The notes: a model not told the origin generated them from the sequence alone. Positions 3,345-58,320 are shown, counted from the stretch's first letter. The stretch: 64,000 nt of DNA from Bacteroidia bacterium (GCA_017857855.1 JAFMCI010000004.1:1665-65664); one strand, 5' to 3'. Numbers and translations are program-made.

Positions 3345-3351
3345 CCACAGA

Positions 3352-4119: not shown

Positions 4120-4146
4120 AGGATGAAAACTAGTAGACAATTTATT

Positions 4147-4722
4147 TTAGATTTTCTTCACGTATTTGGTAATAATAACCACCGTTTGGCCATCTACCTT
4201 GCCTTCTATATACTCTTCGTTATCGGGGTCTAATCGAATATTTCTCACCGCAGCACCTCGCTTAGCTGTAAGACTACTGCCTTTTACATCTAAGTCTTTA
4301 ATAAGCACCACAGCATCGCCAGTAGATAAAACTACACCATTACTGTCTCTGTGAATAATACCGCTGGTAGGTGCAGCTTCCACACCTTCTTTAGCCCACA
4401 ATGTGGTTTCCTCATCCATATACATCATATCCAATAGGTCATTGGGCCAACCTTGTCCTTTTAGCTGGGTTAACATGCGCCACGCTACTACTTTAACTGC
4501 ATTCGCTTCTGACCACATACTATCATTCAAACATCTCCAATGATTAGCATCTACCTTGGTTTCATCCCCTAACTGATCATAACATGTTTCACAGGTCATA
4601 ACACAATTATCGGCTAGTTTACCCTCTTTAGGCGCAACAGTATAGACAGTAAGTCCTTCTTTGCCGCCACATAGCTCGCAACTATCATTACCTCTATCTC
4701 TTAAATCTTGTTCTACACTCAT
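4147..4722 (-). CDS. phnA: PhnA family zinc-ribbon protein
   Basis: N-terminal Cys4 zinc ribbon (CELCGG...CETC) and the conserved PhnA C-terminal domain (VVLIKDLDVKGSSLTAKRGAAVRNIRL...EGKVDGQ). Confidence 0.8.
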   Translation of the reverse strand: MSVEQDLRDRGNDSCELCGGKEGLTVYTVAPKEGKLADNCVMTCETCYDQLGDETKVDANHWRCLNDSMWSEANAVKVVAWRMLTQLKGQGWPNDLLDMMYMDEETTLWAKEGVEAAPTSGIIHRDSNGVVLSTGDAVVLIKDLDVKGSSLTAKRGAAVRNIRLDPDNEEYIEGKVDGQTVVIITKYVKKI

Positions 4723-11248: not shown

Positions 11249-11272
11249 TCCCAACCGTTAAATTATCTTCTA

Positions 11273-11308
11273 AAAAGCCGCATTCTTAGCTGAATGCGGC
11301 TTTTATTT
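11273..11308 (+). terminator. Intrinsic terminator
   Basis: GCCGCATTC-(6 nt loop)-GAATGCGGC gives a 9-bp GC-rich stem followed by TTTTATTTT. Confidence 0.8.
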
Positions 11309-11407
11309 TAGTAAAAAACATACTATTAACCTTAATATTGTACTCTTCCAGGAGAAAGAATACTCACACAATTAAGTGCATCATACAGAATACAATATAC
11401 CGCATTA

Positions 11408-20943: not shown

Positions 20944-23772
20944 ATGCACAGAAAGACATTCGCATTAAGCGTTATACTATTATGTGGTTTTACGTGCTTG
21001 GCTCAATATCCCTCTAATCCAGTAAAACCAACTAGTGAAAAGGAGCGCCTAGAGGCCGTTCAACAACGCGAAGAGCTGCAAAAAAAATCGAGCTATTTAG
21101 GCATTGAAGCAACGAATATAGGTCCCACTATAATGAGTGGACGAGTGGTTGACATGGCCATAGATCCCTACGACACCAAACACTTTTTTGTAGCCTACGC
21201 AACAGGCGGTGTATGGGAAACCAAAAACAACGGACAAAGCTTTACTTCGGTTTTTGATGACAATGGATATACGATACATTGTGGCGCACTTGCTGTAAAT
21301 TGGGTAGAGAAAGTAATATATGTGGGAACGGGCGAGGCTAACTCCAGCCGATCTAGTTATGCTGGTTTTGGGGTTTTTAAATGTGATTTTAGCATAAACG
21401 ACCCCCAAGTGTGGAAGTTTTGGGAGTGCCTCGGACTTGCTGCCACACAGCACATTAGCCGAATTATTCTTCATCCTACCAAGACCAATATTATTTACGT
21501 TGCAAGTATGGGCAGCCTTTTTTCTCCCAATAAAGAACGTGGAATATATAAAACGATAGATGGTGGTAAAACCTGGAAACAAACACTCTTTGTTGATGAA
21601 AATACCAGTGCTATTGATTTAGAAATCGACCCCACAAATTCGAATAGACTCTATGCCGCTATGTGGCAAAAAGAACGAAGAGCTTGGAATTTTTGGGAGG
21701 GAGGCAAAAATAGCGGAGTACATATTTCTGAAGACGGTGGAGACACTTGGAACAAATCTGCATCTTTCCCTTCAGGTGAAAACATTGGAAGGATCGGTCT
21801 TAGCGCTAGTGGGAATTCTATTTACGCTTTACTTGATAATCAAGAGCAATACAAAAAAGAAGAAGCTCCCAGTGAAGGATTAACCAAGAAATCGTTTCAA
21901 ACCATGACGCTGGATTCGTTTAAAAATTTGAGTGACTCCTCATTGAATACCTTTCTAAAACAGAATCGATTTCCAGACAAATACAAAGCAAAAGACATTC
22001 AAAAGATGGCAAAAAAAGGCACACTAAAGCCTTATGATTTTTATGAATATCTGCACGATGAAAATGCCGTAATGTTTGAAGATCCCGTGAAAGGCCCCGA
22101 ACTCTATCGTAGCACAGATGCTGGCAAAACATGGACTAAAACACACGAAAATGTTCTCGAAAATGTTTGCTATTCGTACGGTTATTACTTTGGAGTGGTT
22201 GCTGTAAATCCCAAGGACGAAAATCATGTTTTTATAGCGGGTGTACCTTTATTGCAATCAAAGAATGGTGGGTCCAGTTTTACATTTTCGGGTGGCGATA
22301 ATGTGCACGTAGATCATCATTACATCTGGGTAAATCCTGACAATCCTCTTCACCTTATCAATGGCAACGATGGAGGGGTAAACATTAGTTATGATGGCGG
22401 AGACCACTGGACTAAGTGCAACTCTCCAGCAGTTGGGCAGTTTTACACCATTGCAGTTGATAATCAAAAATATTACAATGTTTACGGTGGGTTGCAGGAT
22501 AACGGGGTTTGGAAAGGTCCAAATAATTATAATTACAGCACCTCGTGGCATCAAGAAGGCAAATATCCCTATCAGCGCATTGCCGGCGGCGATGGTATGC
22601 AAATCCAGATAGACAATAGAGACCAAACAGTATATACAGGTTCTCAATTTGGACACTATTACCGCAGAGATGCTAACGGGGGCTATGCCTACATACATCC
22701 TATGCACGACCTGAAAACGGAGAAACTGCGCTGGAATTGGCAGACGCCTATCCTGCTATCCATGCACAATCAAGATATTCTGTATATGGCGAGCAACAAG
22801 TTGCATCGCAGTAGGAATAAAGGCAAAACTTTTGAAGAGATAAGCCCAGACTTGAGTAATGGCAGAAAAGATGGGGATGTGAGCTATGGCACTATTTCGT
22901 GTATATCCGAAAGTAAATTCGAATTTGGATTAATCTATGCAGGCACAGATGATGGCAACATTCAACTTACCAAAAATGAAGGCAAAACTTGGAGCAACAT
23001 ATCACAAAAACTCCCCCAACACCTTTGGGTACGAAAAATTGTAGCTAGCGAACATAAAAAAGAACGTGTGTATGCCCTATTGAATGGTCATACTTGGGAT
23101 CACTTTAATTCCTACATTTACATCTCCGAAGATTATGGAACTACTTGGACACAAGTAGGCAATAATTTACCTGCAGAATGCTTGAATGCACTGAAAGAAG
23201 ATGCAATAACAGAAGATATTTTATACGTAGGATCTGACGCAGGATTATATATTTCGACAGATAGAGGAACTAGCTTTCAAGCATTTAGCAATTTGCCTCC
23301 TGTGGCGATTCATGACTTGGCCATTCAACAAGAGCAAAGAGACTTATTGGTGGGCACCCATGGCAGAAGTATTTATAAGATTCAACTTGAACCTGTTTAC
23401 CAATCTGCTACCTACCTAGATTCGGGCTTTTTATTTTTAAAAATGGATCCGTTAAAATACAGTGAAAACTGGGGTACACTCAGCTATGAATGGAAAGAAA
23501 CCGCACCTAGAAAAGAGGTGGTTTTTTATCTTAGTGAGCGATCTAACGTAACCATAGCAATTACAGATGAAAAAGGAAATCTATTACTTGAAAAAGATAT
23601 TAACGGTAAAAAAGGATTCAATACACATTCTATTGAACTTAAATTTCAAGAAAACCCAAGTAATAACCTTAAGAAAGGAGATCTTGGGAAATACTATCCT
23701 GTAAAAGGCAAGTATATCATCTCCGTAAATAACGGATCTCAAACCTTAGAAAATAGCTTAATGATTCAATAA
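20944..23772 (+). CDS. Secreted BNR/Asp-box repeat beta-propeller protein (sortilin/VPS10-like)
   Basis: About nine Asp-box motifs (TIDGGKTW, SEDGGDTW, STDAGKTW, SYDGGDHW, TKNEGKTW, SEDYGTTW, STDRGTSF and others). The start was moved to ATG 20944 (MHRKTFALSVILLCGFTCLAQ signal peptide) from the track GTG at 20929. Confidence 0.8.
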   Translation: MHRKTFALSVILLCGFTCLAQYPSNPVKPTSEKERLEAVQQREELQKKSSYLGIEATNIGPTIMSGRVVDMAIDPYDTKHFFVAYATGGVWETKNNGQSFTSVFDDNGYTIHCGALAVNWVEKVIYVGTGEANSSRSSYAGFGVFKCDFSINDPQVWKFWECLGLAATQHISRIILHPTKTNIIYVASMGSLFSPNKERGIYKTIDGGKTWKQTLFVDENTSAIDLEIDPTNSNRLYAAMWQKERRAWNFWEGGKNSGVHISEDGGDTWNKSASFPSGENIGRIGLSASGNSIYALLDNQEQYKKEEAPSEGLTKKSFQTMTLDSFKNLSDSSLNTFLKQNRFPDKYKAKDIQKMAKKGTLKPYDFYEYLHDENAVMFEDPVKGPELYRSTDAGKTWTKTHENVLENVCYSYGYYFGVVAVNPKDENHVFIAGVPLLQSKNGGSSFTFSGGDNVHVDHHYIWVNPDNPLHLINGNDGGVNISYDGGDHWTKCNSPAVGQFYTIAVDNQKYYNVYGGLQDNGVWKGPNNYNYSTSWHQEGKYPYQRIAGGDGMQIQIDNRDQTVYTGSQFGHYYRRDANGGYAYIHPMHDLKTEKLRWNWQTPILLSMHNQDILYMASNKLHRSRNKGKTFEEISPDLSNGRKDGDVSYGTISCISESKFEFGLIYAGTDDGNIQLTKNEGKTWSNISQKLPQHLWVRKIVASEHKKERVYALLNGHTWDHFNSYIYISEDYGTTWTQVGNNLPAECLNALKEDAITEDILYVGSDAGLYISTDRGTSFQAFSNLPPVAIHDLAIQQEQRDLLVGTHGRSIYKIQLEPVYQSATYLDSGFLFLKMDPLKYSENWGTLSYEWKETAPRKEVVFYLSERSNVTIAITDEKGNLLLEKDINGKKGFNTHSIELKFQENPSNNLKKGDLGKYYPVKGKYIISVNNGSQTLENSLMIQ

Positions 23773-32269: not shown

Positions 32270-32273
32270 CACT

Positions 32274-32393
32274 GCTTATAAAGAAAGACTGAGGGATTAG
32301 GCCCAGAGAAGTCTTAGCAACCTGAAAGCGAATGTTAACATGCTATTCAAGGTGCTACATCCTATCAAGAATATAAATCTTGAGCAGATAAGT
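32274..32393 (+). promoter_or_regulatory. SAM-I (S-box) riboswitch
   Basis: Conserved core in the correct order: P1 CUUAU (32275-79) / AUAAG (32388-92), AGA.AG, GAGGGA, GGCCC, GA, GCAACC, GGUGCUA.AUCC, a P4 hairpin UCAAGA/UCUUGA (32365-70 / 32378-83) and GCAGAUAAG. It sits directly upstream of a methionine-synthesis gene. Confidence 0.8.
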
Positions 32394-32427
32394 TTCTCTA
32401 CTCTCCTAATTTGTCAGCATATAATAA

Positions 32428-43582: not shown

Positions 43583-46396
43583 TTATAATTTAAAGCTAAC
43601 GCCGAATAGTATTTGTCTAGGAGCGGTATAACGAGCAGGATTGTTAGGAGGTGTTCCGCTTTCCTCTGGTCCAAGGTAGCGATCATCCCGCTGGTTATTG
43701 GGCAAATCGTCTCCTGGTTCCCAAGCTCTGCCTGTCACGGGATTAATAACCTGCGCATTCTTATAGTTAAATAAATTTCTTGCTTCCACACTCAGTGTAA
43801 CTCCTTTACCCTTTCCTTGTGCAAATGTCTTTGTGAGTTTAATATCACTGTTTACCCATGGCGTAGCTCGTTCAGCTAAATAATTATTCAGATCTGAAAC
43901 ATACAGTGGTCTACCTAAATCATTATATCCTTCTAAAAGCATTGGCGTATATCTAAATCCACTCTGGTACGATGAGCTAAAGTAGATTTGCGTTCCTTTC
44001 ATCCATTTTCGATAGATGCTTAAATTAGTATCTGGTGCAAAGACCACCCCAAGATTAATATTCCATGGTCTATCCCAAGCCAAGTACTGCTCTGTGCTTA
44101 GCGGTACTTCCCCATTTTGCTCTATTTGCAAACTACTTTCTCTCGCACTGTTACTTTTACCTTTGGCGAGCTGGTAGGCTACGTTGGTAAATGTTCGCAA
44201 GTACGATGTCATTCGCCAGATAACATTAGCCTCTGCGCCTTGCACTTTCGCATAATCCTGGTTAATGTACATGGTCTTGCTTACAGGTCTTCCCGTTTGA
44301 TCCGTTACAATAACCTTGCGGCTTACGATGTAGTCAAAACGATTGTTATTATAGGCCGCCAATGTTAGGCCTAAATTTTTCTTAATCTGAGATTTAAACC
44401 CTATTTCGTATGCTACATTTACCTCTGGATTTAAGTCTGGATTACCCAAAAACGAAAGAAAACTTCTATCCTGATACTCTGGATCTAAGCCTGCATATAC
44501 AAAACGAGGATGCGGTAAACGCATACTATGACTATAATTAAAGTACAGTACGTTATTATTGGTTACCGGAAACGACACATTTATTTTAGGCAATATTCTA
44601 GCCTTATAACGAAGTCCAAATACCTTCACTGTATGGCTTTTGTAGTCTTCTCTTACTTGATTGATAACAGGTGCAGTTGGATTATTAACCGCATCATCCG
44701 CAAACTTACCCGGCGCCCAATAATTGAAACGCGCTCCTAAATTGGCGATTATCCCTTTGTATAGTATTTTATCACTAAAAAATAGACCTCCATTATTTGG
44801 TTTTACACGCCAAATGTCATTGCTAGAACCAATGCTAATACTCGGAGTACTTATACTATCATTGATTTGTATGGGTGCGCCAACCCAAGGTCTTGTCACA
44901 TCTACCCACTGATATTCATTGAGCTTATGCTCCCAACCGAAATTCATCTGATGGGTTTTATCCTTTGGATAATATTTAAAACTCGTTTTAATGGTGTGCT
45001 CACTTGCAAAGTGATCGTGCCACGTAGAACTTATACCTCCATTATTTATTAAACCTGGACCCGGCAGTACATATTGAATAAAACCATTAGGGTTAAAAAC
45101 TTGCACTGGATTGGTTACTATGCTTTGCTCGTCATACACTTGGTCTACCGAATTAGTTCTAAAAGGTCTTCCGTTGGCGTCTGCTCTCAAATTGGTAAAA
45201 AGTCGACCCAAGGTAAGTGTTCCCACTAATTTTTCGGTGATGGTACGTCTTATATTTATAGCTGTAAGATTAGAGGAATGGGTGTAGGTAGTAGCGTTAT
45301 CTAAATTTAAACTTCTATCAAACTGATAACCTGGTGCTAAAATCGCATCAAATCCGACAATTTGCAGTGATCGTGTACTTTGATTTACAGTTAAACTGTG
45401 TTGGTTGGTTATCGTGATTTTCGTTTTTTGATTAAGCTCGTGCGAGAGTTTTAAGGTATGGGTAAATTGATTGGATTGTCTTGGTGCCCAAAAACTATCG
45501 TTTTCCGTTAGTAAAGAACTATGCAATTGCTTCGCAGTAGGACCAAAATAATCGTCGGTAAGGTTTAGCGTAACATTGTTAAAGAAATAAAATTTTCTCT
45601 TCTTCACTTTAATTTTCCCGCCGAATGAAAATTCGCCTATATCTGTATTCCAACCCGAATTTGTACTTCCTCCAAGATTATCTCTTTGCCAACTTCCCGC
45701 AACTTGAAATTCATCTGAACCTTCCTTTATAGATGTGCTAATAACACCGGCGGTACCCCCGTCATGCTCAGCTCCTGCGCCGCCTGTAATCAACTCTAAT
45801 TCGCCTATTGAACCACTGGATACTTGTACCCCGAAGCCGGTCCCTGCCAAAGGATCTTGTGCGCTTATGTTATCTATATTAAAAGACGTTTCATACACAC
45901 GAGCTCCTCTAATTTGGATACCATCTGGAGATTTAGATACACCTGCTTGAATTGCAACCACCTCTTGAACGTCTCGCACATTCATCTCCTCGATATCTTT
46001 TTTGTTTAAAGTTATTGTACTTTTAGCATCGTCTAGTTCAACAACTTTTTTTCTGCCTACTATTTTTACTGTTTCGAATGAGTTGGTTTGTGCCGTCATT
46101 TTCACATTGAGTACAGTTGATTTATCCGCCTGAATCTCCATGTCATTATAGATTTTCTGCTGGTAACCCATAAATGATATGTTTATAGTGTACGATCCTG
46201 GTTTTATATTGGGTATTTTAAATGACCCATCTACCTCTGTGATAGCTGCTCCGTAAGTGCCTACTATTCTTACATAAGCTCCTATCAGCTTTTCACCGTT
46301 TTCTTGATCAGTAAGCACCCCTTTAAGAGTGCCGTTTTGAGCAATGCTAAACAATGTACATAATAAGCCTAGAATGCTACCAGTTAAACGCTTCAT
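43583..46396 (-). CDS. TonB-dependent outer-membrane receptor with an N-terminal carboxypeptidase-regulatory-like domain
   Basis: Signal peptide, a CarboxypepD_reg-like beta-sandwich (GTLKGVLTD...VDGSFKIPNIKPGSYTINISFMGYQ), a plug (ITLNKKDIEEM...IRGAR) and a ~700-aa barrel. No SusD-like gene is adjacent. Confidence 0.9.
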   Translation of the reverse strand: MKRLTGSILGLLCTLFSIAQNGTLKGVLTDQENGEKLIGAYVRIVGTYGAAITEVDGSFKIPNIKPGSYTINISFMGYQQKIYNDMEIQADKSTVLNVKMTAQTNSFETVKIVGRKKVVELDDAKSTITLNKKDIEEMNVRDVQEVVAIQAGVSKSPDGIQIRGARVYETSFNIDNISAQDPLAGTGFGVQVSSGSIGELELITGGAGAEHDGGTAGVISTSIKEGSDEFQVAGSWQRDNLGGSTNSGWNTDIGEFSFGGKIKVKKRKFYFFNNVTLNLTDDYFGPTAKQLHSSLLTENDSFWAPRQSNQFTHTLKLSHELNQKTKITITNQHSLTVNQSTRSLQIVGFDAILAPGYQFDRSLNLDNATTYTHSSNLTAINIRRTITEKLVGTLTLGRLFTNLRADANGRPFRTNSVDQVYDEQSIVTNPVQVFNPNGFIQYVLPGPGLINNGGISSTWHDHFASEHTIKTSFKYYPKDKTHQMNFGWEHKLNEYQWVDVTRPWVGAPIQINDSISTPSISIGSSNDIWRVKPNNGGLFFSDKILYKGIIANLGARFNYWAPGKFADDAVNNPTAPVINQVREDYKSHTVKVFGLRYKARILPKINVSFPVTNNNVLYFNYSHSMRLPHPRFVYAGLDPEYQDRSFLSFLGNPDLNPEVNVAYEIGFKSQIKKNLGLTLAAYNNNRFDYIVSRKVIVTDQTGRPVSKTMYINQDYAKVQGAEANVIWRMTSYLRTFTNVAYQLAKGKSNSARESSLQIEQNGEVPLSTEQYLAWDRPWNINLGVVFAPDTNLSIYRKWMKGTQIYFSSSYQSGFRYTPMLLEGYNDLGRPLYVSDLNNYLAERATPWVNSDIKLTKTFAQGKGKGVTLSVEARNLFNYKNAQVINPVTGRAWEPGDDLPNNQRDDRYLGPEESGTPPNNPARYTAPRQILFGVSFKL

Positions 46397-47834
46397 TTAG
46401 TATTTTAGAGATTAATTGATTTTGGTTAATACTATTTTTATTAAGCTTATGTAGTTCAACAGAAAAGAGCACTAAATTCACTTGATTATTATTGTTTCTT
46501 CTTCTAATGGCAATGCACCTTGGACCACTCCAGCCACCGCTAGGTGTAAGTTGAGCATTATAAAACACTTCTGCATTTACTCCTGGGTAAAAAGGATCTG
46601 CAGCGAGTAGGAAATTAGCAGGTTGTACCACAGGATATGCGACATCTTTACTTATCGCAGCACTGTCGTTGGTAAAAAAAGCTTGACCTCTAGCCGAGCT
46701 AAAACTATCAATTGATAGTACATCTCCAATTATGCTTAAATCAGCTCCGTTAGAAAACGAAGTAGAAACCAGTACTTTTTTATTATTGTCAATTAGTTGT
46801 TGAATGACAGGCGCAGCAAAATCTAACAAAGTGCCGTCAAGGCCTGAGAAAGGATTACTTGTGGTGCCTTCTTCGGTATGAAAGAAAATTTTATCGTATT
46901 CCATGGCAAGAAGCCGGAATGTGGGATCCCAAAACTTAGGTTGGTATTTGCCGCCATCACGGGCATAATCTACTACGTCTAGGTCTTGGTAATTAGTTGC
47001 AATTAGAGCATTGTATGTAGCCGATAAACTTTTGTTGTGTCCACCTACGGCAAGCAAATCACTTGTTTTAGCCTTGGTGTAAATATTTATGGTACTATCT
47101 ACTTTACTTTCTGAATTAGCAATGTCGGAAACTTTAAGTTGGATGATATTGTCACCTCCATTTACAAAACCATCTATGGTCAGACTAGCATTTTTTTCAA
47201 TTCCGTAATAGAGTTTCGCTTTGCCTTTGCCTAACGTAGAAGTGTTTTCTGCGATGAGTGAAATTAATTTTTGATTGAGATCAATCTCTGACCATGCTCC
47301 CTCATTGGCGCGTATAAAGCCTTTTTTTAGCGTAGCATCTCCATCTGGATCACTGGCTCGGTAACGAAAAGATATAACAAGATTTGTGGTGTCTTCGGTT
47401 ACACTTGTTTTGTCAAACGACACAATCGGTGGACTATTTTTAAGAGGAACTTTTATGTAAGCAGGTGTTGGATCAGCAACGTTTTCATCATCCACCGCTC
47501 TTACATAAAACTCAATATCTGTTGAGTCTGCGTCTGGATCAATATCAAATAAAAATGTACTATCTTGTATTTGAGTTTTAAACCATTCGCCTTCATTTAT
47601 TTTAATTTCATAATGCCGAACATAACCATCTACGTCCGTACCAAACCACGTAAGGTTAACTGTGCTATTTAGCCGTTTGTCTCCTGAAAGGTTGATATTT
47701 TCTACAGACAATTTAGTTTCGGGTGCCATGTTTGGCAACTCTTCTCCTGTTTTACAGGAAAAAATAAAAACAAGAAGACCGAGCACGAGAGTGCTCAGTC
47801 TTCTTGTTGTATATGATAAGATCGTATTTATCAT
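46377..47834 (-). CDS. Hypothetical lipoprotein of the TBDR operon
   Basis: Lipobox LVFIFSC. Two Ig/FN3-like N-terminal modules (APETKLSVENI...WFGTDVDGYVRHYEIKI..., PPIVSFD...YRASDPDGD) are followed by an alpha/beta-looking C-terminal half. Its stop overlaps the TBDR start by 20 nt. Confidence 0.55.
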   Translation of the reverse strand: MINTILSYTTRRLSTLVLGLLVFIFSCKTGEELPNMAPETKLSVENINLSGDKRLNSTVNLTWFGTDVDGYVRHYEIKINEGEWFKTQIQDSTFLFDIDPDADSTDIEFYVRAVDDENVADPTPAYIKVPLKNSPPIVSFDKTSVTEDTTNLVISFRYRASDPDGDATLKKGFIRANEGAWSEIDLNQKLISLIAENTSTLGKGKAKLYYGIEKNASLTIDGFVNGGDNIIQLKVSDIANSESKVDSTINIYTKAKTSDLLAVGGHNKSLSATYNALIATNYQDLDVVDYARDGGKYQPKFWDPTFRLLAMEYDKIFFHTEEGTTSNPFSGLDGTLLDFAAPVIQQLIDNNKKVLVSTSFSNGADLSIIGDVLSIDSFSSARGQAFFTNDSAAISKDVAYPVVQPANFLLAADPFYPGVNAEVFYNAQLTPSGGWSGPRCIAIRRRNNNNQVNLVLFSVELHKLNKNSINQNQLISKILNEAFNW

Positions 47835-50047
47835 TAAAGTTTCACAAACTTAGCAGAAGCTCTCTGCCCAGTTGCGTTGGTATATTCCAGGAAATAAACA
47901 CCACTTAATAATGAACTTATATTCACAGAGGTGCTTCCAAGTATTTCAGTTTGACTAACTAATCTTCCTTCAAGACTGCGTATTGCAAGTGTGCCGTTAC
48001 CATTGTTTCCTACCTGAATATTTAACACATTATTGGCAGGATTAGGGTAGAAAGAAACACCTAAATTGGTAAGTTCTACCACACTATTTTTAGCGGTATC
48101 GCTCGCATATTTTGCTGATTCTAGTGTTTGGCTAAAACCTATAATATCGTCGTTATTTCTTGGCTTAAGTGCAAACTGGCTGAATCCATAATAAATAACA
48201 CCAACTATAGCGTCCATATCCATGTCTTTGGTAGCTTCCACTGCTGTTACTTCCATGATACCATCTATGTTGGCAAAAGTGTCGTTAGACACTAAAGACA
48301 CCCAAAGCGAAGAATTATTATTGCTATTTTTTACGCCGGTTTGAACCTTGGTACTGTTGGCAAAATTAGCAGCAGTATCATTAGAGATCATGAATTCTCC
48401 AAATGGATTTAAACGTGGGTTAGCTATTTTTACTTTACCTCCTGAATTAACCATTTTTACAAGCATAGATTCGTATTTTTCCATTCCTCCATTTGCTCTG
48501 CCTGCACTATCGCTTACTGGTAATTCTATAGGCGCTACATCAAATGTTTTACCTGTTTTAGATACTGAAGTTACTTCTAGTTGGGTGTTTCCGAAGGATT
48601 CTACCACTTTACCAGTTACTTCTACTTCTTCAGTTCTCCATAAGTCTAACAAGTCAGCGTTGCCTGTTAATTTTATGCCGGCAAACTCTGTTGCGTCTTT
48701 ATCTTGAATGTAAATATCTTCCAGGTCGTAAGGCTTAGCACTTGCGATAACATATCCTTTTACGGTAACTGTTTGATCTTTGTATGGACTCGCATCTTGA
48801 ACAGGGTTTAATACTTTTTGAAGGTCAACAATACTTAAGCCATTGTCTCTCACGGTATAAAAAGAGGTTGAACCCGATGCTTTTGCTGCACTAAAAGGTT
48901 CGTAGCTTTTATTACCATCGTTATCATCAGCAGTAATGTAGTATCTAACTATTGTGCCATCTGTAAAAGCTGGAATATTCGCTTCAAATTCATCAGTTGA
49001 ACCTGACTTTAATGTCATAGAAACTGGAGTGAAAGCGGTATTGTCTTGATTTAAATTTGTTGAATAAAATAATTTTTGGTCTACTACCGTGCCGTTAAAA
49101 TCTACCATTTTGGCTGTAAGCGTTACCACATTACCGCTAGCAGGAACCAATGGACTTCTGCTTACTTGTGTAATGCTTGGAGGTGTGTCTCCTACTTTGT
49201 AATGATCCGCAGAGAATGGATTTAATTCATAACCTCTTCCTGTTCCACCTGAACAACCATTTTGAGAATGAAGCACTATGCCAGTCAAAGACTCGTATTT
49301 AGTACCTACTACTGGTGGTGTAAATTGTCCTTTTGTTTGAGGAGATGAACCATTAAGTGCATTCCAACTTGCTTGTTTTTGAGCAATAAATCTATCAGAA
49401 ACATTTATTAAATTACCGTTTACATCACTCACATCAAAACTAACTCTATTGCCACTGAAAATAGAAACACCAACCACGGTTACGTTTTCTAATGTTACTA
49501 ACGAACCTTCGTACTCTTCCCCCGAAGTGTATACATTACTTCTTGAGTTGTCATTTAGTACACCCAAGTTTATTACTTTAGGAGTAGGAGCAGAGGTTGT
49601 TCCTATAACAGTTACTGACGAATTGTCTTTAGGATAGATTTGTGTTTCACCGCTGAAGTTATTTACTGTTCCCACGATTTCTACAATCATACCTGCTACT
49701 AGATTATTAAGTGCAGTTACCGGCTGAGATAGTTGACCAGAATATACCCCGTGAATTTGAATACCTGCAAAATTGCCCATTACTCCACCCGCAGCGGTAT
49801 CCATAATGTGTACACCAGGTCTGTAACCTCCAGTAACTGAACCTGACGCTAATTCTGTAAGACCTCCGTCATGCATAACTACACCTACAGTCTTTATTTC
49901 TTGACCGTCATACGCACTTAAATCTTTACAACTTGCTAAGTCACTAGGACTTACATACTGTATATCGTGCACCGATACAGTCGTTTGAGCAGACGCAAAA
50001 AGGATACTGAATAATCCCAATGCTAGTGTTAGAACTTGTTTTTTCAT
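47834..50047 (-). CDS. T9SS type A-sorted surface protein with repeated OB-like modules
   Basis: Signal peptide, at least two modules resembling the N-terminal barrel of ExeM/NucH extracellular nucleases, and the C-terminal VSFYPNPANNVLNIQV...LSGVYFLEYTNATGQRASAKFVKL type A CTD. Confidence 0.7.
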   Translation of the reverse strand: MKKQVLTLALGLFSILFASAQTTVSVHDIQYVSPSDLASCKDLSAYDGQEIKTVGVVMHDGGLTELASGSVTGGYRPGVHIMDTAAGGVMGNFAGIQIHGVYSGQLSQPVTALNNLVAGMIVEIVGTVNNFSGETQIYPKDNSSVTVIGTTSAPTPKVINLGVLNDNSRSNVYTSGEEYEGSLVTLENVTVVGVSIFSGNRVSFDVSDVNGNLINVSDRFIAQKQASWNALNGSSPQTKGQFTPPVVGTKYESLTGIVLHSQNGCSGGTGRGYELNPFSADHYKVGDTPPSITQVSRSPLVPASGNVVTLTAKMVDFNGTVVDQKLFYSTNLNQDNTAFTPVSMTLKSGSTDEFEANIPAFTDGTIVRYYITADDNDGNKSYEPFSAAKASGSTSFYTVRDNGLSIVDLQKVLNPVQDASPYKDQTVTVKGYVIASAKPYDLEDIYIQDKDATEFAGIKLTGNADLLDLWRTEEVEVTGKVVESFGNTQLEVTSVSKTGKTFDVAPIELPVSDSAGRANGGMEKYESMLVKMVNSGGKVKIANPRLNPFGEFMISNDTAANFANSTKVQTGVKNSNNNSSLWVSLVSNDTFANIDGIMEVTAVEATKDMDMDAIVGVIYYGFSQFALKPRNNDDIIGFSQTLESAKYASDTAKNSVVELTNLGVSFYPNPANNVLNIQVGNNGNGTLAIRSLEGRLVSQTEILGSTSVNISSLLSGVYFLEYTNATGQRASAKFVKL

Positions 50048-50066
50048 TTTATTCTTTATTTATTCT

Positions 50067-52190
50067 TTATTTTATGACGGCAAATTTGCTTTTGTATAAT
50101 TTGCCAGTATCTAAGTCTTTTACGGTAAAAATATATAACCCCCTGGCTATAATTTGTGTGTTCTCTGTAAGCAAGTCCCATGCATGCTCTCCTCCTGAAA
50201 ATACGTTTTGGTCCGCATTCTCTGCCCCAAATGTTTGATTCCAGCGGATATCACTGCCATCATATTGGGCGTTGTGCGTTATCTGATCTAAGAAATCTCC
50301 TGCTGCTGTGTAAACATATATTTCACAATTAGCGGGTAGGTTAGCAAAGTATAACTTACGACTTTGTTCTTGAAATGAACTTTTCCCTTCCCAACTTGCT
50401 CCTGCGATGTAGGGATTAGGATACGCAAATGGCTCATTGACACTTAAGTTCTCATTTGCGGGCTTCCCTGCATACGCTCTATAATTATTCGCAAGCGGGC
50501 TACTTTCTAGACTCTCTAGGTTACTGGCCGCATTACCTCTGTCAAAAGCAGTTACCGATATAGCATATTGCCAGCCGTTTAACACATTGTTTACGGTGTA
50601 TTTATACCAATATTCGGTATCATCTCCTTCAAACTTAAAAGGTTGATCAAGTCTTACTGCGCCAAAACCTGTCTCATAATTATAACCATTAGCAGCTATA
50701 TCGTATTCCGCTATTTTCACCAAATCGCGTTGCAAATTAGGGACGGCACTTACGTCAAAACCTAATTTAGTCATATAGACTCTGTATCCTTCAAAATCCA
50801 TGGTTTGACTTATAGGGTCAATACTAGACTCTGCGTTTTGCGCCCAATAAATCTCGATTTTATTTTCAGCAGTTACTACTTTAGTTACCGGAATTTCTGG
50901 AGGAGCGGGAAGTATGAAGCGTGTAAGTTTTCCGTCTCCATCTATATCTTCACCAGCATCTAAAAGGCCATTTGCATTAACATCTTCACCATTATATGCA
51001 GTTTGCGCCCAAGAAGCATTGGCTAAGAAAATACTCTGTTGCTCCAAATTATTGGCGCTATTCGCATTACCATCTTGTTTCTTTCTACCAAAAATAAAGG
51101 CATAACTAACCTTTATCTTATCTCCTGGTTTGAAATCTTTAAATGGACCAACGGAAACTAAGTCTGAACGATTACCTGCTTCATTCAACTGCTGCTGATA
51201 GCTTTTAGTTCCGCAACTTGAGTTAGTGGTATTGTTTTCATCCCAACATTGATGTTGGTTTAATCCTCGGGTTAATTTTTGATAGCGCGTGTTGTCGTTG
51301 GTAGGTTGGAAGTATATAGGATCTGTAGTACTATTAAACTGCCAAGCATTGTAATTCGCTTTAAATGAAGACCCATTATTAGGATGGTGAAAGCCATTTT
51401 TATCTTCTGCACCTAAAAATTTTTGCCCCACATAGCTATCTGTAAAACCTACATCCCCCGCATTATCATAGCAGTATGCCATTTGTAAGCTATCAAAATA
51501 ACCATTACCTCCTTTATTATAGAAAGAGGCACCGCCACTTCCCGCAGGAGTAACATTGATATTTCGAACAACGGTATTAGCCCAAAGCCCAAAAAAGGCA
51601 CTGTCGATGGTGTTCGTACCGATATTTTCTAGTTCATAATCTAAAATAACAAAAAAATCACTGAAGCTGTAGTTCCAATTATATGACTTTGCGGTTATTT
51701 GAACAAAAAGAGGGTCGAGGTGAGATCCTATTTGAGTATTCGTACCTGGCACTTTTACATTTTTATCAGAAAATGTGGCTACAAAATCTTGGTGAGAAAC
51801 TGCAGATGTATTGTAATAGGGACTATTTCGAAGCGATGAGATTTCTTTAAGTGTGGCTCCTGGTTCCGGATAAAACTCAAAACCGGCAGAACCCGTGCTA
51901 TATCCTTGGGGGGCATCTACTGCTGCAGTACTCACTGCCACGGTAGATCCATTTATTAATCCGCCAAACCAAATACCACTTTCAAACAGATGTTCTACGC
52001 CGCTTCCTGCGGGATATTCTCCAGAAGGGTTACCCGAACCATCGCGATATCCTCGAAATGCATTGCCAAACGTACCTGAGTTGGACACATTTAGACGTAC
52101 ATTAGAGGCCGTGGTAGTTTTCTCACTAAAGGTTTGCGCAGATACACAAAACGAAAACGAGAGGGAGACTATAAAAGCACTTAACTTCAT
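50067..52190 (-). CDS. Secreted protein with a DxDxDG Ca-binding loop, an FN3-like domain and a C-terminal CTD-like beta-sandwich
   Basis: Signal peptide (FSFCVSAQ), DVNANGLLDAGEDIDGDGKL and an FN3-like stretch (PPEIPVTKVVTAENKIEIYW...FEGYRVYM...WQYAISVTAFDRGN). The last ~110 aa begin AYPNPY and end GLYIFTVKDLDTGKLYKSKFAVIK. Confidence 0.55.
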   Translation of the reverse strand: MKLSAFIVSLSFSFCVSAQTFSEKTTTASNVRLNVSNSGTFGNAFRGYRDGSGNPSGEYPAGSGVEHLFESGIWFGGLINGSTVAVSTAAVDAPQGYSTGSAGFEFYPEPGATLKEISSLRNSPYYNTSAVSHQDFVATFSDKNVKVPGTNTQIGSHLDPLFVQITAKSYNWNYSFSDFFVILDYELENIGTNTIDSAFFGLWANTVVRNINVTPAGSGGASFYNKGGNGYFDSLQMAYCYDNAGDVGFTDSYVGQKFLGAEDKNGFHHPNNGSSFKANYNAWQFNSTTDPIYFQPTNDNTRYQKLTRGLNQHQCWDENNTTNSSCGTKSYQQQLNEAGNRSDLVSVGPFKDFKPGDKIKVSYAFIFGRKKQDGNANSANNLEQQSIFLANASWAQTAYNGEDVNANGLLDAGEDIDGDGKLTRFILPAPPEIPVTKVVTAENKIEIYWAQNAESSIDPISQTMDFEGYRVYMTKLGFDVSAVPNLQRDLVKIAEYDIAANGYNYETGFGAVRLDQPFKFEGDDTEYWYKYTVNNVLNGWQYAISVTAFDRGNAASNLESLESSPLANNYRAYAGKPANENLSVNEPFAYPNPYIAGASWEGKSSFQEQSRKLYFANLPANCEIYVYTAAGDFLDQITHNAQYDGSDIRWNQTFGAENADQNVFSGGEHAWDLLTENTQIIARGLYIFTVKDLDTGKLYKSKFAVIK

Positions 52191-52202
52191 GTATTAAAGT
52201 CG

Positions 52203-52210
52203 CAAATATA
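52203..52210 (-). promoter_or_regulatory. Bacteroidota -7 promoter box TATATTTG for the four-gene TBDR operon
   Basis: Exact TAnnTTTG on the minus strand, 12 nt upstream of ATG 52190. Confidence 0.5.
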
Positions 52211-52243: not shown

Positions 52244-52924
52244 TTAAACTTTAGGCTTGGCTTTTGTCACAAAAACTGATTTAATATAATTGGGCTCATA
52301 ATACGCCACACGCTCTAGCTCACCCGCTTCCCACTTTTTAAGGGCTTCAGGAAGTAAATTTCGAGCATTAATACCTGTATGTGAACTAATTAAAATGTTT
52401 TTGGGATTAAATTCTTGAACCCATTTTAAGGCTCCAGATCCACAAGCAATTGTCTCTCCGTGGGTATAATCACCAGCTAGTTGAGCATCGATTGTGATAA
52501 ACTGTTCATCAGCAATAGAATTTAGTTTTTTGTCAAATACACCCAAATAGGCATCCATTCTACGTGCATCTATCAATGAGATAAAACGTTCCGCTTTGGG
52601 AAATTCTAATTGAGCTGAAGCTGCAAAAGCGGCTAATGTAGAGCATGCGATAAGTGGTAAATCTGATCCGAAACAAAGGCCTTTGGCCAAACTGCACCCA
52701 ATACGCAATCCGGTATATGAACCAGGACCTCCGCCAATAATAACCGCGTCAAGTGTAGCTATTTCTAATCCGCTTTCTTTTAAAACATCGTCTACAAATT
52801 GTGCTAAATAAATAGAATGTGAGTTGGGTTCTTGAATAGATTTTTCAGCAATAATCTGACTACCGCGAGAAACTGCGACTGAGCAAACATCTCCGGAAGA
52901 TTCTATTAAAATAAATTTAGGCAC
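52244..52924 (-). CDS. tsaB: tRNA threonylcarbamoyladenosine biosynthesis protein TsaB
   Basis: 226 aa with ILIESSGDVCSVAV and IIGGGPGSYTGLRIG, characteristic of YeaZ/TsaB. Confidence 0.85.
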   Translation of the reverse strand: MPKFILIESSGDVCSVAVSRGSQIIAEKSIQEPNSHSIYLAQFVDDVLKESGLEIATLDAVIIGGGPGSYTGLRIGCSLAKGLCFGSDLPLIACSTLAAFAASAQLEFPKAERFISLIDARRMDAYLGVFDKKLNSIADEQFITIDAQLAGDYTHGETIACGSGALKWVQEFNPKNILISSHTGINARNLLPEALKKWEAGELERVAYYEPNYIKSVFVTKAKPKV

Positions 52925-52936
52925 TTCAGGAACTAA

Positions 52937-53428
52937 TTAGCTGCTTTCTAACGATTTTACTCTTTTAAACGCCCAAGATTTTTCAAAAGGAACTTGCCAT
53001 CTTGTACGTAATTCCGAAAGCACTCCCAGCGTATTATCCAGAAACGTAGAATTAGCATGAATAATACCCACACGAAATGCTTGTGTTAGCTCCGGAAGCT
53101 GCACTAAGCGAATCTTATCGTCTTCTAAAAAGGTGAGATTCATTCTGTTAAAAAGATCCAAGTTCATTTCGTTATCAATTTGTCTGAATATAGCAGAAGT
53201 CTGATCTATGCTGCACCCCGATGCTGCTTCTATCTCCTCATCTACCCCTAATACCAAGAGTTGGTTGTAAAAAATAGCAAATTCGGCTGTAAGTTGATTA
53301 CCATGAGCTGCCCAGTTTTTGCAAAAAACAGAAAGTCTTTCTTCTATGATTGATGATTCTGCTAATGTCAGAGATCTATTGGCTACATAAATCCATATTC
53401 GTCCATTTCCGGTAAGTGTTGGGAACAT
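52937..53428 (-). CDS. Conserved hypothetical cytoplasmic protein
   Basis: 163-aa ORF with good coding character, 12 nt upstream of tsaB on the same strand. No motif recognised. Confidence 0.5.
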   Translation of the reverse strand: MFPTLTGNGRIWIYVANRSLTLAESSIIEERLSVFCKNWAAHGNQLTAEFAIFYNQLLVLGVDEEIEAASGCSIDQTSAIFRQIDNEMNLDLFNRMNLTFLEDDKIRLVQLPELTQAFRVGIIHANSTFLDNTLGVLSELRTRWQVPFEKSWAFKRVKSLESS

Positions 53429-55944: not shown

Positions 55945-58320
55945 ATGCAAAAAGTACTTGGAATTATATCATTGATTATTGGGCTCGGCTTAGTTTATTT
56001 TTTTAACAACTCACATACCCTAGGTGAGAAGCCTATCCCGCCTATTGGTAAACTGTTAAATCCGTTTACGGGAGCATGGCAAAACTCTGAAAAAAGTACG
56101 GATTATTCAGACTTTAAGCTTACAAGTGAGCTTATTAAAGAAGAGGTTACTATCGTTTTTGACGACCGAATGGTGCCTCATATTTATGCAAAAAACTTAC
56201 AAGATGCAATGTTTGCACAAGGCTACGTAGAAGCTTATCATAGGTTGTTTCAAATGGATTTATCGACTCGCTCACCTGACGGTAAATTGGCTGAAATTCT
56301 CGGACCTAATCTGTTAGAGTATGATAAGAAACAACGTAGATTAGGACTTGGTTTTGCGGCAGATAATGCACTTAAAGGGTGGGATAATTTCCCCGAGGAG
56401 CTAAAAAATGTAGATGCGTATACTGCTGGCGTCAACCATTTTATAGATAACCTAGCTCCAAAAGATTATCCAATAGAATATAAACTCTTGGATTTTAAGC
56501 CAAGTTCATGGACCAATAGACACTCTGCCTTGCTACTTAAGGCAATGACGCAAACACTGGCCGGTTATGAAAATGATATTGAAATGAGCAATGCGCTTCG
56601 TGTATTGGGGAAAGAAGACTTTAATTTAATTTATCCTGATAGGAATCCAAAAGATATTCCAATTGCTGAAGGACCGTATAACTACGCTAAAGAACGTACA
56701 GATTCTTTTAAAGGCGCTATTACGAGTCTTAATTTGCCTAGCATCCAAAGGCCACGTTCTCCAGATGGTATAGGTAGCAATAACTGGGCTGTGAGTGGTT
56801 CTAAAAGTGCTACAGGATTACCCATGCTTGCCAATGATCCACATTTAGGATTGAGCCTACCATCGGTATGGTATGAGATAGCTATTACCACTCCCGAATT
56901 TTCTGCACAAGGTGTGACCTTACTTGGGATGCCAGGCATTATGATTGGGTTTAACGAAAATATAGCATGGGGTGAGACGAATGTTGGTCATGATGTATCA
57001 GACTACTATACCGTAAAATGGACCGATAAAAGTAAAACCAGTTATATGCTAGACGGTCAGCAAAAAAAGGCAGATCTCAAAATAGAAAAGATATTGGTTA
57101 AAGGTGAGAAGGTGGTATTTGATACGGTTAGGTATACTGTTTGGGGCCCAGTAGTAGATGATGAGACCAATTTAGCCCTGCGTTGGATAGCGCACGATGC
57201 GGCACCTACGCCTGAGTTTATGGCTTTTGTTAATGGAATGCAGTGTGATAATTATGACGATTATTTGAAATCTACAGCTGCATTTTATGCGCCTGCACAA
57301 AACTTTATTTATGCAGATAATAAAAATGAAATAGGGATACGGATAAACGGTTCACTGCCTATAAAAAAGTATATGCAAGGAGTTACCATTACCGATGGTT
57401 CCAGTTCTAAAAATGGGTGGTCAGGGTTTATCCCACGCGACGCCAATCCTCAAGAACGTAATCCTGAAAGAGGATATGTTAGCAGTGCAAACCAATACAG
57501 TGCCAATGAAGATTATCCTTATTATTACAATGGGAATTTTGAACCTTATAGAGGCAGAATAGTAAACAAGTATCTTGCCGATAAAAAGGTTGTCGATTTA
57601 ACCTATATGAAAGCCATGCAAAACAGTACATACAGTATGTTGGCAGAAGAAGCACTTGCCGTTATGCTGCCAAGACTCAATGGGAAAGTTGCTATGCACG
57701 CCTATGCTAAGGAATTAGCTAAGTGGGATTTTCATTATGATGCTTCATCTGTAGCTGCAGTTTTGTTTGACAGATGGTTCAGTACTTTTCACGAAATGCT
57801 ATGGGATGAAGTGTATACACAAAATAAAAAAGTTGCTCTTCCCGAACCGGATTATTGGGTTACGGTTAATATGATGGAAAGCATGAATACTAGTAAATTT
57901 TACGATGTAGCATCCACTTCAAAAGTAGAATCCTTGGACGACCTTATAAATCAATCGTTTAGGATTGTTATGGGGTTAGATAGACTCACATTGAGCGAGT
58001 CTAAAGACGCTCAAATACTACACCTTACTCGTTTACCTGCATTCTCAGAAATGGAACTAGCCTTGGGCGGCACCAAGTATAGTTTGAATGCTATGCAACA
58101 GAAGTTTGGACCCAGTTGGCGCATGATTGTCTTGTTGGGCAAGACCCCTGAAGCTTATGGGACATATCCAGGAGGCCAAAGTGGGAATCCTGCAAGCCCT
58201 TTCTACAAAAACCGTATATCCACCTGGGCAAAAGGAGAATATGATAAACTTGTCTTGGCCCGAAAATCTTCAGAAATATCTACATCACTTTTTACCATTC
58301 ATATAAATCATGAAAAATAG
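55945..58320 (+). CDS. Penicillin acylase family (Ntn-hydrolase, S45) protein
   Basis: 791 aa with an N-terminal anchor or signal. The autoprocessing site context GIGSNNWAVSG (Ser nucleophile) and ANDPHL are typical of penicillin/AHL acylases. Confidence 0.85.
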   Translation: MQKVLGIISLIIGLGLVYFFNNSHTLGEKPIPPIGKLLNPFTGAWQNSEKSTDYSDFKLTSELIKEEVTIVFDDRMVPHIYAKNLQDAMFAQGYVEAYHRLFQMDLSTRSPDGKLAEILGPNLLEYDKKQRRLGLGFAADNALKGWDNFPEELKNVDAYTAGVNHFIDNLAPKDYPIEYKLLDFKPSSWTNRHSALLLKAMTQTLAGYENDIEMSNALRVLGKEDFNLIYPDRNPKDIPIAEGPYNYAKERTDSFKGAITSLNLPSIQRPRSPDGIGSNNWAVSGSKSATGLPMLANDPHLGLSLPSVWYEIAITTPEFSAQGVTLLGMPGIMIGFNENIAWGETNVGHDVSDYYTVKWTDKSKTSYMLDGQQKKADLKIEKILVKGEKVVFDTVRYTVWGPVVDDETNLALRWIAHDAAPTPEFMAFVNGMQCDNYDDYLKSTAAFYAPAQNFIYADNKNEIGIRINGSLPIKKYMQGVTITDGSSSKNGWSGFIPRDANPQERNPERGYVSSANQYSANEDYPYYYNGNFEPYRGRIVNKYLADKKVVDLTYMKAMQNSTYSMLAEEALAVMLPRLNGKVAMHAYAKELAKWDFHYDASSVAAVLFDRWFSTFHEMLWDEVYTQNKKVALPEPDYWVTVNMMESMNTSKFYDVASTSKVESLDDLINQSFRIVMGLDRLTLSESKDAQILHLTRLPAFSEMELALGGTKYSLNAMQQKFGPSWRMIVLLGKTPEAYGTYPGGQSGNPASPFYKNRISTWAKGEYDKLVLARKSSEISTSLFTIHINHEK

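Follow-up and report, generated by a model that had tools for sequence, protein, structure and literature searches.

A conserved four-gene module pairing a T9SS-tailed OB-fold protein with a non-SusC TonB-dependent receptor: candidate machinery for capturing and importing an extracellular polymer

Four adjacent genes (A to D) on the minus strand of a 64,000-nucleotide stretch of Bacteroidia DNA (the window) make up the core of a module that totals six to seven genes. We put the probability at roughly 0.45 that this module works at the outer membrane to bind a polymer from outside the cell, most likely nucleic acid, and to bring fragments of it in. An earlier note on this DNA had proposed a surface-capture and TonB-powered import unit. 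That core idea holds with three amendments: a terminator-like hairpin partly splits the unit, a substrate candidate can be named, and the four genes belong to a larger module for which published systems offer a functional precedent. Nucleic acid is a concrete candidate because B carries ExeM/NucH-type OB-fold modules and because relatives encode EEP nuclease-like neighbors. The features are as follows.

52203..52210, minus strand: TATATTTG, a Bacteroidota -7-type promoter box (direct reading; conservation)
50067..52190, minus strand: gene A, open reading frame of 707 aa
47834..50047, minus strand: gene B, open reading frame of 737 aa
47757..47808, minus strand: intrinsic-terminator-like element (folding energy, cross-locus conservation, covariation)
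46377..47834, minus strand: gene C, open reading frame of 485 aa
43583..46396, minus strand: gene D, open reading frame of 937 aa

The four reading frames and their junctions were reproduced exactly as the note had given them, with a 19-nt gap between A and B, a TAATG at the B/C junction (1-nt overlap), and a 20-nt overlap between the C stop and the D start. The note had also seen neither a SusD nor a glycoside hydrolase, peptidase, or regulator in the unit, and none was found within or adjoining A-B-C-D. The note had suggested checking synteny across relatives, and the gene order held: order and strand were constant in all loci of sufficient length among L001-L085, and a Marinimicrobia-like contig carries A-B-C-D-PorV/Q-NHL with the order unchanged. 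The flanks of these loci are unrelated. Identity across loci was 58-97% for A and 55-98% for D. One further locus (L089) has the module genes in rearranged form. As judged from these sequences, the module ranges from Flavobacteriales to Marinimicrobia, and so into at least one further FCB-group phylum, and synteny over this range supports the view that it is a single machine.

B is a T9SS type A cargo. Its C-terminal domain scored 50.1 bits against TIGR04183 (cut-off 23) and 46.5 bits against PF18962 (Por_Secre_tail; cut-off 27), and the B-family profile matches two T9SS C-terminal domains of known structure, 8glj_D and 8glk_D. Ahead of this tail are two homologous OB-fold modules (approximately residues 24-190 and 404-535), each followed by a sandwich, and a central Ig-like domain; hhalign gave the internal duplication a probability of 96.9%. 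The ExeM_NucH_DNase model (NF033681) was matched by 36 of 37 B homologues (best 2e-22), and B aligns over positions 34-234 of its 546 only, which is the non-catalytic OB region. Weak matches to OB-fold nucleic-acid-binding Pfam models were found in 27 of the 37. The modules are homologous to the YhcR-like nucleic-acid-binding OB region of the ExeM/NucH nucleases (Xds) of Shewanella, Vibrio, and Aeromonas (NF033681; PMC6085458), a double-OB region that in ExeM is essential for DNase activity (PMC6085458). B as a complete ExeM/NucH endonuclease was ruled out: its 63 bits fall far short of the 300-bit cut-off, it had no Exo_endo_phos match, and without an EEP catalytic domain it cannot be a nuclease. 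The note had been unable to name a family for three of the four products. That is still true of A and C, which have no Pfam or NCBIfam family, but not of B with its OB-fold modules.

A catalytic counterpart may be encoded next door in relatives. An EEP nuclease-like gene lies immediately upstream of A, on the same strand, in 42 related loci. Its product combines a T9SS tail with the complete set of EEP catalytic motifs. It matches the MnuA nuclease model and, over positions 230-544, the catalytic part of ExeM/NucH, although these matches are weak (E 8e-7 to 4e-3). In contrast to ExeM/NucH, where binding and catalysis share one protein, each function would reside in a T9SS cargo of its own. EEP enzymes also include phosphatases and sphingomyelinases, which, together with the weak matches, counts against the nucleic-acid reading. 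Two other loci have relevant neighbors: L087 ends with a protein uniting OB-fold and PLDc_2 domains, and L089 has DeoC and RpiB immediately upstream of the TonB-dependent receptor gene. The clade to which the window belongs lacks the adjacent EEP gene, and there is no nuclease, nucleotidase, or nucleoside transporter at the window's locus or elsewhere in its 64 kb, which also counts against nucleic acid.

OB folds also bind oligosaccharides, and the ligand of the B modules is a prediction. It is therefore possible, though rather unlikely, that the same capture and import machine serves a substrate other than nucleic acid (such as a glycan, a polyanion of another kind, or a polymer carrying phosphate), with the OB folds of B and the supersandwich of A acting as carbohydrate-binding modules. 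The lack of a nuclease at the window's locus would fit such a substrate, and so would the structure of A. Gene A encodes an SPI signal peptide followed by a beta-supersandwich of roughly 400 aa, and Foldseek aligned this N-terminal domain with the N-terminal sandwiches of GH116, GH94, GH15-like, and cyclic-glucan-synthase enzymes; for A it also returned FN3. Such sandwiches are attached to glycoside hydrolases and phosphorylases, and this resemblance, like the faint matches of C to CBM-like/PL4 domain III and F5/8 type C models, weighs against nucleic acid. However, the Foldseek matches of A are weak (TM 0.25, 9% identity), no glycoside hydrolase, lyase, or SusD was found in any of about 90 loci, and the homology of B is specifically to a nuclease-associated OB region. 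Among the neighbors, moreover, those that recur are DeoC and nuclease-like enzymes of the EEP or PLD type.

The remainder of A matches the architecture that the note had described (a DxDxDG loop, an FN3 domain, and a C-terminal sandwich). The loop reads GEDIDGDG, within a Ca-binding-like NGEDxNxNGxLDxGEDxDGDG, and the AF2 model (pLDDT 76) places an FN3 domain before a highly conserved 120-aa C-terminal sandwich of seven strands bearing the motifs YPNPY, GxY (GLY), and KxxK or KxxxxK. The family is large (>2000 homologues; 1949 clusters at 50% identity), and not one of 66 members matched Pfam, NCBIfam, or a PDB sequence. None of the 66 tails was recognized by T9SS sorting-domain HMMs, and hhalign of the A tail with the C-terminal domain of B covered 23 columns at a probability of 9%. 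Of the two T9SS-tailed proteins that the note had counted, only B is thus proven as such. More distant homologues of the A N-terminal domain bear canonical Por_Secre_tail or FlgD_ig tails. The extreme conservation of A, tail included, suggests that it may be an enzyme or a docking subunit.

C is a lipoprotein, as its signal peptide has the lipobox FIFSC and Cys27 is invariant in 85 sequences. The AF2 model (pLDDT 90.5) agrees with the two Ig/FN3-like modules and C-terminal alpha/beta half that had been read from the sequence. Foldseek returned FN3/Ig tandems only. None of the 85 members belonged to a Pfam family, and C matched neither SusD/RagB nor a PDB sequence. The modeled fold is Ig-Ig-alpha/beta and not the TPR-rich helical fold of SusD. 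D has an N-terminal CarboxypepD_reg domain (PF13715), a plug (PF07715; 26.1 bits, cut-off 23.9), and a TonB-dependent receptor barrel (PF00593; 84 bits, cut-off 27), and direct reading of the sequence places a TonB-box-like FETVKIVG ahead of the plug. Against the SusC/RagA model TIGR04056 it scored 57.7 bits, where 368 is required, and matched over its N-terminal 125 residues only. D is therefore a TonB-dependent receptor other than SusC, in agreement with the note.

The module resembles SusC/SusD polysaccharide utilization loci (PULs) in clustering surface proteins and a lipoprotein partner with a TonB-dependent transporter that has a CarboxypepD_reg-type extension. However, it has no SusD, CAZymes, or regulator, and the partners are T9SS cargos. 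With D failing the SusC model and SusD absent, assignment of A-B-C-D to the SusC/SusD PULs was ruled out, as the note had supposed. C and D also resemble BtuB-BtuG and other pairs of transporter and surface lipoprotein in Bacteroides (PMC10404256), in that a non-SusC transporter adjoins a lipoprotein that is a candidate cap. BtuG is a beta-propeller, unlike C with its two Ig modules and alpha/beta domain, and the C-D complex is a proposed one.

D need not be an importer, and Oar of Myxococcus is a CarboxypepD_reg TonB-dependent transporter used in protein export. In 33 relatives, a PorV/PorQ paralogue (172 bits, cut-off 90) and an NHL (beta-propeller) lipoprotein are encoded downstream of D, and these genes are also part of the module in two other lineages. 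The module could then be a T9SS-associated device for surface assembly or export, with D as an Oar-like protein or an anchor and the PorV/PorQ paralogue and propeller docking A and B; the tail of A, conserved far beyond a usual cleaved sorting signal, would be in keeping with such a role. We consider this very improbable. A complete plug and a TonB-box-like motif, as D has them, are typical of importers. In the window's clade the system operates with no PorV/Q or NHL gene at the locus, and the nuclease and OB components indicate that a substrate is processed.

Published systems offer a parallel for import of nucleic acid by such an architecture. The ddbABCDEF locus serves DNA utilization in Bacteroides thetaiotaomicron (bioRxiv 10.1101/2025.03.18.642099), and the homologous pair RA0C_RS04915/RA0C_RS04920 serves natural transformation in Riemerella anatipestifer (PMC8459023; bioRxiv 10.1101/2025.03.18.642099). 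In both DdbC/DdbD and the Riemerella pair, an outer-membrane transporter is paired with an OB-like DUF5689 surface protein (bioRxiv 10.1101/2025.03.18.642099; PMC8459023); DdbC is a TonB-dependent transporter (bioRxiv 10.1101/2025.03.18.642099) and RA0C_RS04915 an outer-membrane protein with CarboxypepD_reg (PMC8459023). The present module shares with them the pairing of a Bacteroidota outer-membrane transporter with an OB-fold-like surface protein and a PUL-like logic without SusD, and it shares secreted nucleases with ddb, in relatives only. The window's own locus has none. It differs further in its OB protein: B has two modules and a T9SS anchor, and is not a DUF5689 lipoprotein encoded beside the transporter, whose neighbor here is the unrelated lipoprotein C. 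The module also adds the very conserved A and, in relatives, the PorV/Q paralogue and NHL lipoprotein. B and DUF5689 (PF18942) agree in fold class (OB). Only one of the 37 B homologues matched DUF5689 (E 2.8e-4; E 0.071 for a fragment of the window's B), and the transporters were compared by description, with CarboxypepD_reg the only feature shared by D and RA0C_RS04915. That the kinship of B with DUF5689 and of D with DdbC is at best putative counts against the nucleic-acid reading. Given the ddb and Riemerella precedents, the A-B-C-D architecture is not without parallel; its parts differ from theirs, and the likeness is one of analogy.

The Riemerella pair, in which a CarboxypepD_reg outer-membrane protein is joined by an OB-like surface protein, also raises the prospect that the module serves natural transformation rather than nutrition, as a gate for DNA uptake that hands long DNA on to competence factors of the periplasm and inner membrane. 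The authors of the ddb study see DNA utilization and transformation as evolutionarily linked (bioRxiv 10.1101/2025.03.18.642099), and loss of the adjacent nuclease in the window's clade would favor intact DNA. We nevertheless regard a transformation gate as improbable, since most lineages keep the nuclease-like gene in the module, L089 ties the module to deoxyribose catabolism, and no competence gene (ComEC, ComEA, or DprA-like) adjoined any examined locus.

Under the preferred reading, capture and import of nucleic acid, A and B would be exported by the T9SS and retained at the cell surface, where B would bind DNA or RNA. The bound nucleic acid would be cut by a nuclease, which relatives encode at the locus and which in this organism, if present at all, would be encoded elsewhere in the genome. 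C would sit on D as a surface partner, as BtuG, DdbD, and SusD do on their transporters, and D would move oligonucleotides to the periplasm using TonB energy. A broader version, which we hold only tentatively and think doubtful, is an ancient T9SS-coupled nucleic-acid uptake machine reaching beyond Bacteroidota, with A and C as new families, a docking pair, and a stoichiometry-setting terminator. If true, A might be a new enzyme or docking subunit, C would be a new type of transporter cap, the machine would have its own PorV/PorQ and propeller docking pair, and a terminator inside signal-peptide codons would fix its stoichiometry. It could then be the main route for dissolved DNA, for feeding or transformation, in abundant uncultured aquatic Flavobacteriales and Marinimicrobia.

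Expression of A and B is driven by the conserved promoter box. TATATTTG sits 12 nt before the ATG of A, where the note had placed it, and 18 of 19 close relatives (near-clade loci) keep it 12-22 nt ahead of the ATG within a spacer that otherwise diverges. Motifs of class TAnnTTTG show no enrichment across the window (94 found vs 85 expected), so the evidence for a promoter box is its conservation and not its occurrence.

The description of the unit as a plain translationally coupled operon without an internal terminator did not survive. A hairpin with a U-tract lies at 47808..47757 and is conserved across relatives. The note had counted internal terminators that split the unit as fatal to its proposal; a split of this kind is partly present, as the hairpin parts A-B from C-D. 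It comprises an 18-bp stem, a UCUC loop, and then UUUUUAUUUUUU, and it lies 26 nt past the B stop, inside C codons 9-25, which are signal-peptide codons. At the level of sequence it has the marks of an intrinsic terminator (a GC-rich hairpin, a U-tract directly after it, and a conserved position), and Rfam gave no match for it. The 91-nt stretch containing it folds at -34.6 kcal/mol (z = -9.4). A comparable hairpin follows the B stop in approximately 70 loci with a mean of -22.9 kcal/mol, compared with -15 to -16 kcal/mol at the other junctions and -14.1 kcal/mol at random positions. Eleven of the 18 pairs are altered on both sides by compensatory changes, and 81.9% of alignment cells are paired, vs 72.9% in shuffles (0 of 500 shuffles) and 38-52% in slid controls. 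This hairpin is predicted to split the module into two expression halves, so that the unit is better described as A-B, an attenuator, and C-D. It would pass only a fraction of transcripts into C-D, and with such partial read-through more of A and B, the surface proteins, would be made than of the transporter pair. In distant clades, the ATG of C lies about 10-30 nt after the U-tract, which leaves no room for a separate promoter.

The four minus-strand genes, here called A to D, lie exactly where the earlier note had placed them, and the junctions it described are correct as well: 19 nt separate A from B, B and C overlap at TAATG, and C and D overlap by 20 nt. The TATATTTG box claimed ahead of A is also present.

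52203..52210, minus strand, candidate promoter box TATATTTG, 12 nt 5' of the ATG of A
50067..52190, minus strand, gene A, ORF of 707 aa
47834..50047, minus strand, gene B, ORF of 737 aa
47808..47769, minus strand, hairpin stem of 18 bp with a UCUC loop, then UUUUUAUUUUUU (terminator scan)
46377..47834, minus strand, gene C, ORF of 485 aa
43583..46396, minus strand, gene D, ORF of 937 aa

We compared the four window proteins with 85 related loci, 80 of them from different species-level genomes (Crocinitomicaceae, Cryomorphaceae, Schleiferiaceae, Salibacteraceae, Vicingaceae, Owenweeksia and Phaeocystidibacter). The order and strand A-B-C-D were kept in every locus with a long enough contig, so that synteny in relatives, which had been put up for checking, held. 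The sole departure in the 85 loci was an insert of ~1.3 kb between A and B (locus L043, ~11136-12428). Because this order is kept while the flanks vary between clades, we conclude that A-B-C-D are selected as a unit. In the window those flanks are housekeeping genes (tsaB, a 163-aa protein, an ABC-F ATPase, DUF3108, an MFS transporter and a penicillin amidase), and no regulator is present.

The TAnnTTTG motif class occurs 94 times in the window and 85 times in shuffles, which is no excess, so the presence of TATATTTG alone is no proof of a promoter. The octamer is found 12-22 nt 5' of the ATG of A in 18 of 19 close relatives. Since it is kept while the remaining tsaB-A spacer has diverged, we read it as the phylogenetic footprint of a true -7 promoter element. 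Sigma-70-type promoters were not in excess either (35 versus 31 in shuffles). A TAAGTTTG box 10 nt 5' of the ATG of C was considered as an internal promoter and ruled out, because it encodes K-F-V of the tail of B, reads CAAGTTTG in a related locus (L004), and would start a transcript that still hits the hairpin after B.

That hairpin, conserved and terminator-like, contradicts the view of a plain coupled operon with no internal signals. It begins 26 nt past the stop codon of B and occupies signal-peptide codons of C (codons 9-25); the stretch that bears it has a folding energy of -34.6 kcal/mol (z = -9.4 versus shuffles). Over 71 loci, the strongest hairpin in the 170 nt past the stop of B averaged about -23 kcal/mol, compared with means of -15.2, -16.0 and -15.3 kcal/mol after the stops of A, C and D and -14.1 kcal/mol at random positions. 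Distant clades have a textbook GC stem and T-run in a short B-C spacer; there the ATG of C comes within ~10-30 nt, too close for a promoter to fit in between. The spacer of the window's clade has shrunk to TAATG, and the hairpin has been retained within coding sequence.

Covariation was measured over 16 loci with the hairpin in coding sequence. Both sides were altered in 11 of the 18 stem pairs, and pairing was found in 81.9% of cells versus 72.9% in shuffles (0/500), with slid registers at 38-52%. The signal peptides encoded over the hairpin vary among loci (TTRRLSTLVLGLLVFIF, NNRLSIAMLSLLFVFAF and SNRLGTAVLGLFVFVF). Pairing kept while the encoded signal peptides differ argues that the RNA structure itself is under selection. 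No Rfam family was matched at the hairpin. We interpret it as a probable leaky intrinsic terminator or 3'-stabilising hairpin, and such an element after B would leave A-B transcripts in excess over A-B-C-D transcripts. The move of this conserved putative attenuator into a signal-peptide coding region is clearly new and well supported, and the maintenance of its structure there by compensatory changes neatly illustrates dual coding constraint. Three Owenweeksia/Cryomorphaceae loci (L071, L072 and L077) have a B-C spacer of ~185 nt. Its double hairpin, ~72-76 nt past the stop of B, is unusually rich in GC (-35 to -40 kcal/mol), shows no clear T-run and could represent another sort of element.

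The T9SS type A tail claimed for B is bona fide by domain models, and PDB sequence and profile searches with B found only this C-terminal sorting domain. The earlier note could name no family for B, but B and 36/37 family members match NCBIfam ExeM_NucH_DNase, at model positions 34-234 only, and 27 of the 37 B members have weak matches to the OB-fold nucleic-acid-binding Pfam family. The OB module is duplicated in B (residues ~24-190 and 404-535, hhalign probability 96.9%). In ExeM, DNase activity requires the corresponding YhcR-like region, which comprises two putative OB folds (PMC6085458). The EEP catalytic domain is absent from B, which is therefore predicted to be a binder and not a nuclease. 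D combines a CarboxypepD_reg domain with Plug and TonB_dep_Rec_b-barrel domains, and its failure against the SusC/RagA model (57.7 bits versus 368) bears out its non-SusC status.

Clustering of flanking ORFs from all loci brought out recurrent neighbours. In 42 loci, a same-strand gene directly 5' of A encodes a protein of ~430 aa that has every EEP motif and ends in a T9SS tail. This protein matches Exo_endo_phos, the MnuA family of membrane nucleases and, in ExeM/NucH, positions 230-544, the catalytic half. In lineages with this neighbour, an ExeM/NucH nuclease would in effect be split, its binding half on B and its catalytic half on a separate cargo. In 33 loci, the genes after D encode a PorV/PorQ-family protein (NF033709, 172 bits versus a cut-off of 90) and an NHL-repeat lipoprotein. 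The EEP, PorV/PorQ and NHL genes are absent at the locus in the window's clade (21 loci, tsaB upstream), and no homologues were found within the 64-kb window. A-B-C-D thus look like the core of a larger module, in which a TonB-dependent transporter is linked with T9SS cargo and with a PorV/PorQ paralogue. These parts bear on whether the module is a T9SS-linked export or anchoring device, which we consider the least probable of the readings weighed here; stated generally, surface capture with TonB-dependent import is quite probable.

The phyletic range of the module is wide and previously unrecorded, with at least 351 species-level genomes. One carrier, Phaeocystidibacter luteus LMG 25704, is cultured, and Owenweeksia hongkongensis possibly carries the module, as the L077 MAG is assigned to that species. 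Several MAG records with close relatives (L007, L014 and L077) have implausible species labels, such as 'Chitinophaga pinensis' on a 95-97% relative of the window, whose own source is best described as uncultured and Bacteroidia/Flavobacteriales-like. The module was also found outside Bacteroidota. A Marinimicrobia-like contig (L087) preserves the order A-B-C-D-PorV/Q-NHL, with identities of 25-39%. A 1035-aa protein 3' of that module (21446-22214, running off the locus end) has OB-fold, Pur_ac_phosph_N, PLDc_2 and dockerin domains, and is predicted to be a nuclease or phosphodiesterase of another type, sharing its position class with the EEP gene. Another lineage outside Bacteroidota (L089), with FlgD_ig tails on its cargos, has the order DeoC and RpiB, D, PorV/Q, NHL, A, then one gene resembling C and one resembling B. 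Its RpiB and DeoC (deoxyribose-phosphate aldolase) genes, at 3035-4410, share the strand of the TBDR gene and lie directly 5' of it.

A and D are the most conserved proteins of the unit (A, 58-97% identity across loci). Family A has >2000 homologue hits and, by a separate count, 1949 clusters at 50% identity, and all 66 members tested lack Pfam, NCBIfam and PDB relatives. The AF2 model of A (pLDDT 76) has a ~400-residue beta-supersandwich, an FN3 domain, a 7-strand C-terminal sandwich and a Ca-binding-like loop, NGEDxNxNGxLDxGEDxDGDG. Foldseek aligned the large domain weakly (TM about 0.25) to N-terminal sandwiches of GH116, GH94, GH15-like and cyclic-glucan-synthase enzymes, and we do not take these matches to indicate a glycosidase function. 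The tail of A, among its best-conserved parts, carries YPNPY, GxY and terminal KxxxxK motifs, which we take to be those of T9SS C-terminal domains, and is ~45 residues longer than such domains. No T9SS model recognises it in the 66 members, and hhalign against the C-terminal domain of B gave 23 columns at 9% probability. Of the two T9SS tails claimed for the unit, only that of B is thus confirmed by models. A is nevertheless likely to be secreted via T9SS, because distant homologues of its N-terminal domain bear canonical Por_Secre_tail or FlgD_ig tails. The genomic contexts of distant paralogues of this domain (L088, L090 and L091) were uninformative.

The lipobox of C includes an invariant Cys27. 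In the high-confidence AF2 model of C (pLDDT 90.5), two Ig/FN3 modules are seen together with an alpha/beta domain. Foldseek matched only FN3/Ig tandems, with nothing for the alpha/beta domain. No family was matched over 85 members (one DUF4159 match being too thin to use), and PDB sequence and profile searches with A and C gave no match.

Our preferred reading, at a probability of roughly 0.45, is that nucleic acid would be captured at the surface and then imported by the module. The same machine acting on a substrate other than nucleic acid is a less likely alternative, to be weighed against the nuclease-related matches of B and its neighbours. Since at least one carrier is cultured, the hypothesis is directly testable. 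In water, much organic phosphorus and nitrogen is present as dissolved DNA and RNA, a large pool, and to our knowledge outer-membrane polymer uptake by abundant aquatic Bacteroidota is largely unexplained beyond gut Bacteroides and Riemerella.

No account of the module was found in the literature searched, under several descriptions, and no named family was found for either A or C. The module belongs, as a variant, with TonB-dependent nutrient-uptake loci that have surface binding proteins. The ddbABCDEF locus of Bacteroides thetaiotaomicron encodes secreted nucleases and the TonB-dependent transporter DdbC, whose predicted partner DdbD (DUF5689) resembles OB/HIN DNA binders (bioRxiv 10.1101/2025.03.18.642099). 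A homologous Riemerella pair (RA0C_RS04915/RA0C_RS04920), a CarboxypepD_reg outer-membrane protein and a DUF5689+DUF5017 protein, is essential for natural transformation (PMC8459023). By that precedent the module could be a gate for transformation, which we regard as improbable, though slightly less so than an export device. Compared with both systems, the logic of nucleic-acid import is alike but the parts differ. The OB protein B is an ExeM-type T9SS cargo and not a DUF5689 lipoprotein (DUF5689 was matched by 1 of 37 B homologues); lipoprotein C, beside the transporter, has an unrelated fold; and A has no counterpart. Two large unannotated protein families, A alone with ~1900 clusters at 50% identity, gain from the module a context and a testable role.

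Around the module in the window, the 163-aa protein (52937-53428, minus strand; no Pfam family) is paired with tsaB (52244-52924, minus strand) directly 5' of A, an arrangement kept in ~17-21 near-clade loci. The penicillin amidase family protein (55945-58320, plus strand; PF01804, E 3e-180) lies 3.7 kb upstream on the opposite strand. The sole Rfam match of the window is a SAM riboswitch (32273-32394, plus strand; RF00162, 72 bits).
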